Assembly (NCBI RefSeq): GCF_054482595.1 | Contig: NZ_JBTHVH010000004.1 | Reading direction: 5' to 3' (one strand) | DNA: 64,000 bases | Source of the DNA: a plasmid | Shown: positions 1 to 6,000 of the stretch, in pieces | Layout: the number at the start of each line of letters is the position of its first letter | How positions within the stretch are numbered: the first letter of the stretch is position 1 | Position numbers: made by a program

Positions 1-3000
1 GAACCGTGACGGCATCCCTGATGCTGAAAAAGCTTGCCAGCTATCCCAAGCAAAACGGACTTGCCAAAGCACTGAGAGAAATTGGCCGCATTGAGCGAAC
101 CCTGTTTATGCTCGACTGGTTCCGCGACCCGGCTCTGCGTCGGCGGGTACAGGCGGGGCTGAATAAAGGCGAAGCCCGTAACGCGCTGGCGCGTGCGGTA
201 TTTATGCACCGACTGGGAGAAATCAGGGACAGAAAACCGGAAAATCAGAGCTATCGCGCCAGTGGACTGACGCTGCTGACGGCTGCCATATCCCTGTGGA
301 ATACCGTCTATATGGAAAGAGCGGTCGATGCCCTGAAGCGTAAAGGGGTGAAGATCAACGAGCAACTGCTGTCGCATTTGTCGCCGTTGGGCTGGGAACA
401 CATCAATCTGACAGGTGATTATATCTGGAAAAGCAACCGGATACCGGCTTCTGGTAAGTTTCGTCGGCTAAGACCAGCTAAAGTCGAAAGGTCAAAAAAC
501 AGCCTTAACGTACAATAATTTTCGATATCCAAACTGACCCCGAATACAAGGACAATGCCGGTACCGCCTGATTACTTCTGGCGTCGTCTACAATGTTACT
601 CCAGGCATATGCTGCGTCGTCCGGGGTTTGTTTTGGATCTATGTCCAATGTCGGCCAGACGTGGCCCTGATGATTCTTGCCCTTTGTACAGGAAGTGATT
701 AAGTGTACTGAGCGTTCAGAGAACATTATCTTCCTTACATACCCATAGAACAGCTTTCTAAGAACGGTGGGCTCGGCTGAAAATTACAAATCAGCCCCTT
801 TCACGGCATCATTTTGATTCTTCGCGTCTGCCCCAGTAAGATGACCGGTTTTCTGCATGACAGTGTTATTCCTAACAAACGCAACACAAAACCACGCCAG
901 CCAGAGCAAATTTTTTCATTTGCTGCGTAAAGAGCCTATTGTTTTCTCTTTTAAGCTTCGCCCACTCGTTACAGAGGGTAACATCATCAAGCGCTGTTAT
1001 ATGCTTCGCCTCACCTTCGACGATAACGGTATGGATACCGTATGCTGTAAATCTCATACTATTTTCCAGAACCCAGTTGCGGTATTCGTCGAGTCCACCT
1101 TCGGAACCGGTAGCTCTGCGCCACATTTCAATTTGCTTGTGTGATGGGTCAAGTGTACTTGTCATTGAAGCCTCGTCTCAGCGATAACGCTTGAAATAGC
1201 CCGCTTTGGTCATCATGAAATTAGCCATCTGACTGGCGATTTGATTGTATCTTACTCATAGTGCCCTACCTATAGGTTAAAAAGGGGCATTTTCGCTTTA
1301 TAGCGTGTTCAGCAGCATCAATCCTCCCAAGAAAGGCTGGCTTATTAAGCCGGTCCATCATTTTCTGTATATCTCTCATCAATTTTTATATCCGCCCTGG
1401 AGTGCACCGTTCAAGCACACCGATTAGGCAGATAGTCACTAGTTAACTCTTTACTAGTGACTAAATTCCATTGATATACGTGACAACGTCACGTCATGAA
1501 AGCTTTTAAATGCCTATTTTTCATACAATGGGATTTAATTAGGAGTAAATCCCATAGGCTTACATAAGGATGACAATTAAAAGCGTTAAATATCAACCAG
1601 ATAGAATGATTACCCCCAATTAATGGGCTCATCACATTATTTCACTGGCTGGGGTTATTGCTGGCATATCTGAAAGTGCTAATATGTTAGTCATTAGTAA
1701 TTAGTAAAGCCTTTACTAAACGCGTTTCTACGTAAATTCTATAGGTTTTATAGTGTCCTACCTTTGCTCAAATCAAAATGTTCTGACATACCAAAATGGA
1801 GTGTAAAATGACTCAAAACCAGGGTTCTGAGCCAGTACCGGCGAGCCGGACAGGGCAGCTCATCAGCGCCCGGGATATGGCCATGCAGAAATTCGAAGAA
1901 GGGATGCGGTTAATCTCGGAAGCGTCGGAACTGTGCGGTCTCTCTCTCTTCACCAGCAGAATTATGCAGCCCAACGCATTTGGTCTTCCGTCGTCACTGG
2001 ATCGCACCATCGAGGAGGGGCGTAAGGAAATTGACCGTAAAACGTGGAAAAGGCTCTTTGAAGAAACAGGTATGGACCGGTACTGGAACCATAAGCAAAA
2101 AGAAGCCTTTAACGAATCCCTTCGTACGGATCCGCCCGTCGCTTCCCTGGAGATTGTTAAGGGAACATTACAGCATGCACTGGCTAACAGACGAGACACC
2201 CTTGCAGAAGGTTTCGTTGATGTTCTCAACAAGCTTGACCGAAGTTTCAAAAGCAATGCCAGGCAATATACAATGCCAAAAAAGCTTGTTCTTCGGGGGA
2301 TTTTTCCTGGTGTGAACGTGCTGAGGTACAACGGTTTCTCGCAGGACAATCACTTTTGTTTACGCGACTTTGAGAATATTGTATGCATCTGTTCTGATAC
2401 TCCAACACCTGCAACCGGCGGTGGGCTGAGTATGGTCGACAGGCTGACGGCCATGAGAAATACAGAATTCACAGGCGAGGTCAGTGATGAGAATGGCTGG
2501 CGGTGTCGCCTGTTTGAGAATGGAAACGTTCATATTTGCATCGACAGTATCTCGCTTCTGAATGCTCTGAACGATCTTATCAGCATATATTTTGCAAACC
2601 AGCTTCCGGCCGCAGGAAAAAAATGATGATTGAAAATGATAAAGAAAAAAGCCTGAACGATGCTACCCCGCCAGAGGTGCAGAATGACATCCGCAGCGAA
2701 TCCACTGAAAAATCAAAGGAAATGGGTCGTTCAAGGTACTCATCTATCGCGATGATCGATTACTTCAATGCAATCGAACGTCTGTGCAAAGAGAAAGAAA
2801 TTAACCCGGAAAATATCGATCTGAGCTTCAAAGTTCACTGGCTCAGAAACGCTGTTGGCGGCTCGTTTGCAAGGTCACAGGAGATGTTCGCGGAGTACCA
2901 GAAGTATGTTAAAGAGGTTCCTGAAGAGGCCCGTTACCTGGATATACCCGATGAGGTAAAGGTTGCACTCGGCGATATTATCTCGTACATCACCTGGCAC

Positions 3001-6000
3001 TACCGTAGAAGCTATACCGCAATACAGAATGATAGTGTTAAAAAAGCTGAAGCACGTAGCATGCAGCTGGAGGAGGAGGTAACGCAGCTGTTACAGCGGC
3101 TTGAGCAAAGCGCTACCGATATGGATGAGCTGAAACTTGAGAATCAGGCACTACAGGGTCGATTAGAGATCCGGGACAGTACCGTCAAGGAGTTAGAAAC
3201 AAGGCTGAATGTTGCCGAAGCAGAACTCGAAACCTGCCATCACCAGTTAGATAGCACACGGCATGAATTGAGCCTCGCACAGCAGTCAAATGACTCACTC
3301 TCCCAGCAACTGGCTGAACGTAAAACAGAGATCGCTGGTCACCTTGAATATCAAAAAAAGCTGAACGAAGAGATCAACACGCAGCGTTCTGATAACGCCG
3401 GTCTTTCCAGACAATGCGACCAGTTAAGTCAGACTGTGTCAGATACAAAGGCAGAGAGGGACAGGTTTGAACAGGAATTGATTGCTGCACAGAACCTTTG
3501 TACTGAGCTGAAAAGTGCACTGTCCGGGAAAGAGGGTGACCTGGTGGCGGTGAATGCCGAGCTTACTGAACTCCATAAACTAAACGAGTCGCTGAGCGCC
3601 GACCTGAATAAAGTAACTTTGGTCAGCCAGGGCTATGAAGCGGAAGTGGCTGAACAAAGCAATGAACTCAAAACGCTCCAGGCCAAAGTAATGAAGCTGG
3701 AAGCTACCCTGGAGGCGGAGAAAACAATCTCAGAATCCCTAAAAGGCACCATTGATACATTAACTGGTGCAATGGCAGGGGGAGGTACTGGAAAGTCAAA
3801 ACAGCCGCGTAGCAGAAAAACATCATGATAAATGAAGCCAGGTTGATACACTTCTCTGCATCCCCTGGCACATAAGAACTTCTGCGGACATTCAGCCCGT
3901 CCGCAGGAGTTTTCGTCCTTCAGTCAACAAATGCACTACCTTTTTTGAGTCTCCACTTTCCAGAGCAGAAAACACGTTACCGATTCTACCAACAGCTTGT
4001 ATCTGAGTGATAACCCCAGTCTTGTAATCATCTAGGATCCCTGACAGGAAAGCGTTCAGTTTTGTCTGTTCGCTTAGCGAAAGCATGTAGGACATTTTTT
4101 CTCCATTTTAAGCAGGTGTGTCAGTTGAAAGAGGTTTGCGTGATTCTGGAAAATGAGGCAGCACCATAGTTTCAGATGCTGTGGTCGCATCCCAGTGCCA
4201 CCATCCATAAGGCCCATATTCACGGTTGTAATAATCTTTTTTGAGTTGCTTTCGGGCCAGATAAGCAGGAGTGGCCATACCAAATACTTCCATCGGGAAC
4301 GGCTTATCGCTTTTTGTGTCGAGCAGGTAGAAGTCAGGGAACACCTCACTAATACTCGCATCATAACGCATGGGCTTAACGTACTGCCGGTGCTCTGCAT
4401 CCAGCTTTTCTGCAACAACCGCCTCATAGGAGGAGTCCAGAGGTATCCAGTTCTCGCTAACGTGCATCAGCACAATTTGATGAGCTCTTACAGAAGGGCC
4501 TCTGCCGGTTACCGCAGCTGGTGACGTCAACGCAAAGACAACTATTTTCGCCCCGGATTTCCATGCTGCGTACTCCGATGAAAATCGTTTCTTTACGCTA
4601 TCCCAATGGACTTCTGAATTGAAAAAAATCAGCGGTAGCCCCCCAAAATTCCGCAGGGGTAAAAATTTAAGTGGCTTCTCATGCTTTTCAGCATCGTAGC
4701 GAGGTAAAACTGACAGGAGCATGAGACGTTTATCACTCATCGCCTGTGATGAAAGACGCTGAATTTGCGACTGAGCGACAGGTTGTTTCGGGTCAGGTAC
4801 ACCAATGAATAAATGGTCACCTATGCAGGCTCTGCCGGTACGAATTTGTTTAGCGGTTTCAAGCAGACGATACCGTACCAGTGAATCGTTACGTTTCCCT
4901 GCCATTTTCGGGTACCAGACATTCAGACCAGACTCTGTCCACAAAAGACTAAGCAAGCCCAGGAGGGTCATTGAGGCCTGACCTCCTTCTGGTCGCTGAA
5001 CATGGGGCAGGGGAGGCACTTCTGATTTTTCAGGAGGATCTTTCTCTGTCATACCGATACCGAGCCTTACAGCCATATCACCTTCGGTTGTAATCCGGAC
5101 CACACCACTCGCATATCCTTTCAGGCCGGTATGCCGGGCATCAAGGGAGAAGAATACACAGGAAGGATCATGCTCAATGCCCGTGTTAGCGGCTTTGACG
5201 AGAATAAAGGCATCACCGTTCGGTAAAGCACGAACATAAAGTCGCTTTTCTCCTTTTCCACGACATCCGCAGGTGATGACTGATTTTTGACCTGAGGTGT
5301 GGTGTGCCTTTTTAAGAGCCGACTGCCACCCTTTAGCAAACTCATCCTGCGTTTGAAAGTCAGGTGAATACCTTTTGACGTTTGGATCGTCGTCGTAAGC
5401 AATCATCACTGCGAATTTTTGGCTCATAGTAGTCTCCTAAACAGGAAGTTTAATATCCCAACCAGAGCAACACTTCCTGAGCGTCATACTGTTCCTTTAC
5501 GCCCATGTCGCTAAAGAATTCTTCGAAATCTGTTTCGGGAACGCAATGCCTGGACAGTTCTTGTAATGCTCGTTCTTTAGATACCGTCTCACCTTCAGCT
5601 GATTCGAAATACGTCATGGTTGACCTCTGACATTATTACAACAATCTTAAGCATTTAAATTGATGAAGGAGCTCAGGTCAGCTGACTTCGTCGTAAAACT
5701 GCCGCAAGCGCTGGGAGGCTGCAAATTCAATTCGTGACTTCAGCAGTTTGGCGACGGCCGCAAAGACATCAACGACCACGGAGTTCCCAAACTGTCTGTA
5801 AGCCTGTGTATTGGACACAGGGATACGGAAAACACTTTCCCCGGGTTTATCGAAGCCCATTAGCCTGCTGCATTCACGTGGCGTTAGCATGCGTGGCCGA
5901 CGGTCCATGTTGTATGTGTTATGGAAATCAGTTTCTCCCAGTTCATGAGACCAGCCCCGATCAATAAGAATTTCAGATCCGTCTTTCATATAGCGGCTTG

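Follow-up and report, generated by a model that had tools for sequence, protein, structure and literature searches.

We analysed a 64,000-nucleotide stretch of plasmid DNA (contig NZ_JBTHVH010000004.1 of NCBI RefSeq assembly GCF_054482595.1; hereafter the window), which comes from an IncHI2 plasmid with repHI2 at 48166..49254, and found in it a two-gene operon that is a backbone module common to IncHI1 and IncHI2 plasmids and their relatives. The first gene codes for a free-standing protein of the DUF4942 family and the second for a protein made of a helical head and a long coiled coil; upstream of them, palindromic elements stand in a conserved order (Table 1). The operon is a conserved accessory module whose logic looks familiar, and not a new kind of system. 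We tentatively favour the reading that it is an autoregulated maintenance or establishment module of a KfrA-like kind, with a DUF4942 substrate-binding protein as the partner.

The segment 1200-4000 is present at 100% identity in many plasmids of 190-400 kb from Escherichia, Salmonella, Enterobacter and Klebsiella, and it matches 1177 records in PLSDB, the majority of which are conjugative. RefSeq labels the product of the first gene 'DUF4942 domain-containing protein' and that of the second a 'hypothetical', 'coiled-coil' or 'ATP/GTP-binding' protein. An earlier sequence-only reading of the window, most of which is borne out, had described a protein of about 400 residues with a long tail, whose start is overlapped by the stop codon of the gene before it. 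This is indeed the arrangement: the stop of the DUF4942 gene overlaps the start of the 401-residue gene in an ATGA at 2623-2626, with an AGGA upstream. Both the overlap and the gene order, DUF4942 and then coiled coil, recur in all of the orthologous loci examined (IncHI2, IncHI1 and metagenomic; down to 54% and 27% identity). That reading had opened the DUF4942 frame at 1796, which is a less likely start than the ATG at 1808, because the latter has a GGAG 6 nt upstream, is the start used in RefSeq and agrees with the alignment of homologues. Both genes are under purifying selection: compared with the 98%-identical Serratia copy L020, synonymous codon changes outnumber non-synonymous ones by 8 to 3 in the DUF4942 gene and by 18 to 8 in the coiled-coil gene.

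Table 1. Positions, in the window, of the operon, the elements of its control region, flanking features and the fused DUF4942-methyltransferase gene.
Feature	Position	Strand	Description
Leftward neighbour gene	785..1165	-	Divergent from operon; further left, toward H-NS-like gene
A1 array	1433..1463		[TAGTCAC][TAGTTAA]CTC[TTTACTA][GTGACTA]; two direct and two inverted 7-bp TAGTNAN units
B palindrome	1478..1494		ACGTGAC-AAC-GTCACGT; core GTGAC-N3-GTCAC at 1480-1492
C hairpin/palindrome	1528-1555 (1524..1555 with box)		ATGGGATTTA-N8-TAAATCCCAT, 10-bp arms; preceded by conserved TACNAT box (TACAAT, 1524-1529)
A2 array	1688..1719		[TAGTCAT][TAGTAAT][TAGTAAA]GC[CTTTACTA]
Candidate -10 hexamer	1749..1754	+	TATAGT, read from the sequence
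Free-standing DUF4942 gene	1808..2626	+	272 aa; Shine-Dalgarno GGAG at 1798-1801
Head-plus-coiled-coil gene	2623..3828	+	401 aa; disordered N-terminus, helical head at about aa 38-140 (GGSF motif), helix aa 110-384, basic tail
G+C-rich hairpin	3882..3906		Between convergent operons; likely bidirectional terminator (terminator scan and sequence)
563-aa DUF4942-methyltransferase gene	56156..57847	-	DUF4942 aa 96-290 (nt 56978-57562); motif I aa 423; NPPF aa 486 (nt 56381-56392)

The free-standing DUF4942 protein and its fused relative

The 272-residue protein belongs to the DUF4942 family, since Pfam PF13708 matches its residues 77-265 with an E-value of 3.4e-26 and covers model positions 2-187 of 190. 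The same domain was found in a 563-residue protein encoded elsewhere in the window (residues 96-290, E-value 1.7e-21), followed there by weak matches to MTS, N6_Mtase and Eco57I. The sequence-only reading had aligned the short open reading frame with the N-terminal domain of this longer protein, whose gene lies on the minus strand (a detail that it did not give). The similarity is borne out by the shared Pfam domain and by BLASTP, which pairs the two proteins with an E-value of 7e-6 and 22% identity over 250 residues, across both of the stretches that had been quoted. It was also right in giving the short protein no methyltransferase domain, because neither motif I nor (D/N)PP(Y/F) is present in it. 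What has to be abandoned is the idea that the free gene is a stand-alone copy of the N-terminus of the local methyltransferase: the two DUF4942 copies in the window share only some 20-22% identity, and the fused copy stands at much the same distance from all other sampled members of the family. The two proteins are old paralogues.

The composition of the whole family argues in the same direction. An exhaustive search yielded 583 representative clusters, and among the best 150 of these representatives 78 are 250-299 residues long, compared with 43 at 450-599 residues. NPPF occurs once, in the C-terminal part, in every one of the 46 long representatives (at least 430 residues), whereas no [NDS]PP[FYWH] at all occurs in 81 of the 82 short ones. 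Most proteins have their nearest neighbour in their own size class, which holds for 59 of the 61 short and 15 of the 17 long ones. Judged by these sequences, the free form is the commoner architecture of DUF4942, and the free and fused forms are largely separate, old lineages. A typical 460-residue member consists of DUF4942 (residues 75-257) and a methyltransferase core, with no other part. As the fused proteins have no other non-catalytic domain, a shared role of DUF4942 in DNA recognition is plausible by elimination.

To our knowledge, no member of the DUF4942 family has been studied so far. The AlphaFold2 (AF2) model of the 272-residue protein has a predicted local distance difference test score (pLDDT) of 90 and a predicted template modelling score of 0.81, and a Foldseek search with it matched solely DUF4942 proteins; the fold has no solved relative. 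Homologues at 54-92% identity share 56 invariant positions. The invariant polar residues W80, H242 and N255 resemble a conserved site more than a variable specificity domain. PADLOC has no family match for DUF4942, the PHROGs matches are to families of unknown function only, and a profile search of genome contigs with the DUF4942 alignment found nothing. In an Rfam scan of positions 600-4300 there was a sub-threshold match to Hammerhead_HH9 at 1821-1885 on the minus strand, inside the DUF4942 coding sequence, which we take as chance (22 bits, compared with a gathering score of 52; E-value 0.035).

Free DUF4942 genes are carried by at least 5000 plasmids, of which 93% are conjugative. For example, on the IncL plasmid pOXA-48 and on an IncI plasmid the gene is in the leading region beside the origin of transfer (oriT), among ssb, ardA, psiB and antirestriction genes. 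These other DUF4942 proteins resemble the IncHI protein in fold, domain and size (about 260-290 residues) and in residing on mobile elements among establishment-type genes. They differ from it in their surroundings, because a coupled coiled-coil gene and the A arrays described below are found only in the IncHI-type subfamily (at least 54% identity); relatives at 30-33% identity have no coiled-coil partner gene.

The fused protein can be set beside known adenine methyltransferases. It has motif I and NPPF in the same order as M.TaqI, a gamma-class N6-adenine enzyme, to which its match is weak (E-value 0.5); the domain arrangement is different, with the catalytic domain first and the recognition domain second in M.TaqI, but DUF4942 first and the catalytic core last in the fused protein. 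Like the orphan methyltransferases of leading regions, the fused gene lies beside ParB-like and Dam-like genes. The single-stranded DNA methyltransferases of the type of M.EcoGIX, an orphan plasmid enzyme, were rejected as its identity by size only: judging from the fusion proteins reported for M.EcoGIX, that enzyme appears to be much smaller. The fused gene is part of a block at 55211..60440, a few kb from repHI2, that also contains several small open reading frames, a gene for a 387-residue ParB-like protein (58095..59258, minus strand) and a Dam-like methylase gene (59607..60440, plus strand). Together with a Dcm gene at 5678..7147, the window holds three DNA-methylase genes.

An ordered control region

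The operon and its leftward neighbour diverge from an intergenic region of 643 bp (1166-1807) with a G+C content of 38%, compared with 49% for the window. In a comparison of nine related loci, including L003, L019 and L018 from IncHI1 plasmids, L021 from an IncHI2A plasmid (87% identical) and the metagenomic loci L004, L006, L007 and L008, the only conserved islands in the diverged intergenic DNA are the palindromic elements, in the order A1-B-C-A2-ATG. The sequence-only reading had noted three palindromes here and taken them for operators. They are exact (1434-1462, 1478-1494 and 1701-1719), chance would be expected to produce none of them in the window, and they behave like conserved regulatory sites. 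They are not three independent operators, however, but parts of an ordered region of four elements: the first and third belong to the same type of site, the TAGTNAN arrays A1 and A2 (the third being contained in A2), the second is B, and a fourth, C, had been overlooked.

The arrays stand out from the rest of the DNA. TAGT[ACT]A occurs eight times in 360 bp, compared with 0.84 times per kb overall, which is the peak density of the window, and the TAGTNA units are phased at 7 bp. A1 and A2 are about 255 bp apart, with A1 the nearer to the leftward gene. A1 is conserved in L003, L019, L008 and L021. A2 is identical in L021 despite the overall identity of 87%, and A2-like arrays lie 65-216 nt 5' of the start codon in L003, L006, L007, L008, L018 and L019. 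Across loci, the TAGTAA/TTACTA cores of the A arrays are kept and the central 5 nt vary without complementarity. B is kept in L003, L004, L006, L007 and L019, with invariant arms and a variable 3-nt spacer, and has one mismatch each in L008 and L010. Because the half-sites are conserved, the centres are variable and non-complementary and B tolerates one-sided changes, the A arrays and B look like protein operators rather than hairpins. B was rejected as a site for CRP, whose consensus half-sites are spaced by 6 nt; the spacing in B, by our reading of the sequence, is 5 nt.

C behaves differently. In an alignment of seven loci, 98.6% of its cells are paired, compared with 19-45% when the partner column is slid. 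Four of its 10 pairs have changed on both sides, and the sole departure from pairing is one unpaired cell in the outermost pair. This covariation favours selection for base-pairing, that is, for a hairpin. The region spanning B and C also has a predicted single-stranded DNA fold with z = -5.4. We rejected a large structured RNA or single-stranded DNA element spanning both, because its outer stem loses pairs in L021. The conserved hairpins are only local (7-14 bp), and the large conserved stem-loop that characterizes single-stranded promoters of the Frpo/ssi type is absent.

We found no further copies of the A arrays, of exact B or of C in about 150 kb of IncHI2 sequence scanned, which points to local control, and we rejected a plasmid-wide regulon on the same grounds. 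The direct repeat ATAGTG[CT]CCTACCT, with CTATAGGTT adjoining, is present near both ends of the intergenic region (1258-1278 and 1739-1763), and its downstream copy contains TATAGT. It was dismissed as an element, being not above chance by shuffling and not conserved outside IncHI2.

Rearranged and divergent loci suggest how the elements are divided between the two genes. In L010 there is a DUF4942 gene (33% identity) but the coiled-coil gene is missing; a B-like site and a C-like hairpin with 14-bp arms are present, and A arrays are not. L004 has the most diverged head (36% identity, with GGSFARAQEMF replaced by GGRIHNATTAF); it has a different palindrome in place of the A arrays and keeps B and C. 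From these patterns, in few loci, we infer that the A arrays are associated with the coiled-coil gene, and B and C with the DUF4942 gene. Mobile DNA has also cut the control region. In L018 (pKPC_CAV1374, 3759-3830) the end of a Tn3-family transposon lies inside B, so that A1 and the left half of B are gone and C and A2 remain. In the R478-like IncHI2A plasmids (L020, CP068396; L021, CP052871) there is an insertion junction at about 1757-1760, the control region is about 30 kb from the operon, and rcnR-rcnA abuts the DUF4942 gene. The displaced control region of L021 stays beside the leftward genes with A1, B, C and A2 almost unchanged. Versions of the control region at 80-90% identity are found in at least 422 plasmids.

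The coiled-coil protein and its likeness to KfrA

Homologues of the 401-residue protein are few and restricted to the same loci. In an alignment of ten sequences the N-terminus is variable and disordered, the head (about residues 38-140) is well conserved, the middle is poorly conserved, and a C-terminal motif, EATLxAEKTISxSLKGT, is conserved and followed by a basic tail with a pI of 12. Invariant residues of the head are Y47, F48, K58, N64, L74, R75, G79 and G80, together with a PEExR motif. AF2 models the head as four to five short helices (41-57, 62-68, 71-78, 82-98 and 101-104) at a pLDDT of about 60-80, followed by one helix that spans 275 residues (110-384) and for most of which pLDDT exceeds 90, as expected of a KfrA-type coiled-coil tail.

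KfrA proteins combine a globular N-terminal helix-turn-helix head with a long coiled coil, and they regulate their own expression through inverted or iterated repeats at their promoters (PMC7821693). In the IncHI protein, as in the KfrA proteins of RK2 and R751 (IncP-1) and of RA3 (IncU), a small helical head at the N-terminus leads into a coiled coil of about 250-275 residues, and the chain ends in a short basic stretch (SKQPRSRKTS, compared with GGRKKT in R751 KfrA). In both cases the gene stands in a small operon that also encodes another helical protein as a partner, and short inverted or iterated repeats lie upstream (7-bp TAGTNAN arrays, compared with five 9-bp repeats in RA3). There are also differences. 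The IncHI head is longer by an extra helix, the coiled-coil gene is second in its operon rather than first, the partner is DUF4942 and not KfrB or KfrC, and no korA-incC-korB partition module lies near the operon.

The description 'KfrA-like' given in the sequence-only reading fits the architecture (head, 275-residue helix and basic tail) and does not extend to any homology that we could detect. The Pfam family KfrA_N (PF11740) matches neither the whole protein, nor the head alone, nor any of 14 homologues, and Pfam likewise finds nothing in the head alignment. Comparison with R751 KfrA by hhalign gave an E-value of 0.38 and aligned just a 20-residue motif, in which LRNAVGGSFARSQEMFAEY of the 401-residue protein is paired with VRKQLGSGSFTTISEAMNEWR of KfrA. 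A profile search with the head through 5.8 billion proteins returned the same narrow family, with no bridging or KfrA_N-annotated sequences, and a profile search of PDB gave chance matches only (E-values of 0.24 or more). The family matches of the whole protein are coiled-coil ones only (SMC, crescentin, JetC); NCBIfam, PHROGs and PADLOC gave nothing but coiled-coil noise, and Foldseek with the whole model found no usable match in AFDB50. By analogy, the 401-residue protein may work like KfrA, but we do not file it as a member of that family.

What the operon may do

On the reading that we favour, the head of the coiled-coil protein would bind the TAGTNAN arrays A1 and A2, and its long parallel coiled coil would assemble it into dimers or higher oligomers. 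The bound protein would repress its own operon or set its level, possibly by bridging A1 and A2, whereas B and C are probably promoter-proximal controls of the DUF4942 gene itself. The free DUF4942 protein, which is translationally coupled to the scaffold and would act as its partner, may serve to bind or target a substrate, be it DNA or something bound to DNA, without methylating it; we suggest this because DUF4942 is all that the fused methyltransferases contain outside their catalytic core. The role that we infer is in plasmid establishment or maintenance, and not in restriction-modification.

Several observations weigh against such an autoregulated module. No family in Pfam or PDB, KfrA_N included, could be linked to the head by homology. 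A scan of 1166-1807 for sigma-70 promoters found none reaching 9 of 12 matches, which leaves the proposed autoregulation without a mapped promoter, and the candidate -10 hexamer TATAGT reads TAGAGG in L021. The link between the A arrays and the coiled-coil protein depends on two loci, L010, which lacks the gene, and L004, whose head is diverged. The relaxase gene trhI is about 61 kb from the operon in IncHI2, so the operon is in no obvious leading region. Finally, in the R478-like plasmids the operon is intact though severed from its control region, and therefore the operators are not required in cis for its retention.

We consider it unlikely that the operon instead serves establishment or anti-defence and is expressed from single-stranded DNA, with the hairpins, C above all, acting as a single-stranded promoter or priming site and DUF4942 as an early-entry protein that counters host defence. 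Hairpin promoters in single-stranded DNA do drive leading-region genes, and new classes of them are still emerging (PMC12672017). The abundance of free DUF4942 on conjugative plasmids, its place in the leading regions of pOXA-48 and the IncI plasmid, the two-sided changes that keep C self-complementary, the good single-stranded fold and the failure to find a double-stranded sigma-70 promoter would all be in keeping with this. Yet the known promoters of this kind are large stem-loops that rebuild the -35 and -10 boxes (PMC12672017), whereas just short local hairpins are conserved here and the larger fold loses pairs in L021. The distance from trhI, the operator-like and not hairpin-like behaviour of A and B, and the lack of a PADLOC family match for DUF4942 also count against it.

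It is slightly less likely still that the palindromes are targets of some other regulator, of the plasmid or of the host, or that the main job of the control region is to serve the leftward genes (785..1165, minus strand, and those further on). The region is divergent, A1 is nearer to the leftward gene, and in R478-like plasmids the control region has remained intact beside the leftward genes after its separation from the operon, which fits an operon-independent function in cis. However, the leftward neighbour changes among loci (it is a gene for a 126-residue protein, DUF6884, FRG or others), whereas the elements are always found with a DUF4942 gene; A1 lies anywhere between about 110 and about 830 bp from the leftward gene; the A arrays are gone where the coiled-coil gene is absent; and no more copies of the elements are found in the roughly 150 kb of IncHI2 sequence scanned. 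Very improbable, in our view, is a decayed methyltransferase remnant, in which free DUF4942 would have no function of its own and the palindromes would serve the coiled-coil or leftward genes only. That a methyltransferase domain follows DUF4942 in the long relatives, and that the free protein stops exactly at the end of the domain, could be understood in this way. But the free form is the majority among the best representatives and forms old lineages of its own, its open reading frame is intact in more than 1100 plasmids and translationally coupled to the next gene, and the invariant positions and the excess of synonymous changes described above are not what a remnant would show.

A broader proposal, which we regard as a long shot, is that DUF4942 is a hitherto overlooked nucleic-acid-targeting module of conjugative plasmids, employed at establishment. 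In fused form it would direct protective adenine methylation, and in free form it would have a task independent of methylation, for example to shield or mark incoming DNA or to recruit a host factor. A protein analogous but not homologous to KfrA would tether it to the DNA of IncHI plasmids, and C, with its strict self-complementarity, would represent a new class of small single-stranded DNA or leader-RNA control.

The surroundings of the operon are partly conserved. Convergent with it is a cluster (4108..7835) of a DUF1173 gene (4108..5427, minus strand), a 55-residue open reading frame (5450..5617, minus strand), the Dcm-type C5 methylase gene (5678..7147, minus strand) and, next in most loci, an SNase-like gene (7281..7835, plus strand). 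In all of the orthologous loci examined the DUF1173/Dcm cluster follows the operon immediately or after one or two small genes, and DUF1173, SNase, Dcm and single-stranded DNA-binding protein genes are also near distant free DUF4942 genes (L011, L012 and pWW0). This proximity could be a functional link or merely deep synteny of the backbone. On the other side, the window starts with the C-terminal end of a Tn3-family transposase (6..518). Compared with the reference plasmid pEGY1-MCR-1, the backbone shows an interruption to the left of 785; in the corresponding stretch downstream (12521..47000) that plasmid has a truncated TnAs1 transposase and tet(A).

IncHI1 and IncHI2 plasmids are carriers of mcr-1, mcr-9, extended-spectrum beta-lactamase genes and the multidrug resistance genes of typhoid, and much of their backbone is annotated merely as 'hypothetical'. 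The operon described here is in more than 1100 sequenced plasmids, and the DUF4942 family is in at least 5000, mostly conjugative, often right by oriT. Its control region, with two arrays of 7-bp repeats, a palindrome and a covarying hairpin, offers an experimental handle. A function for free DUF4942 would fill a visible gap among the establishment functions of plasmids, and so would an explanation of why the same module is attached to adenine methyltransferases.

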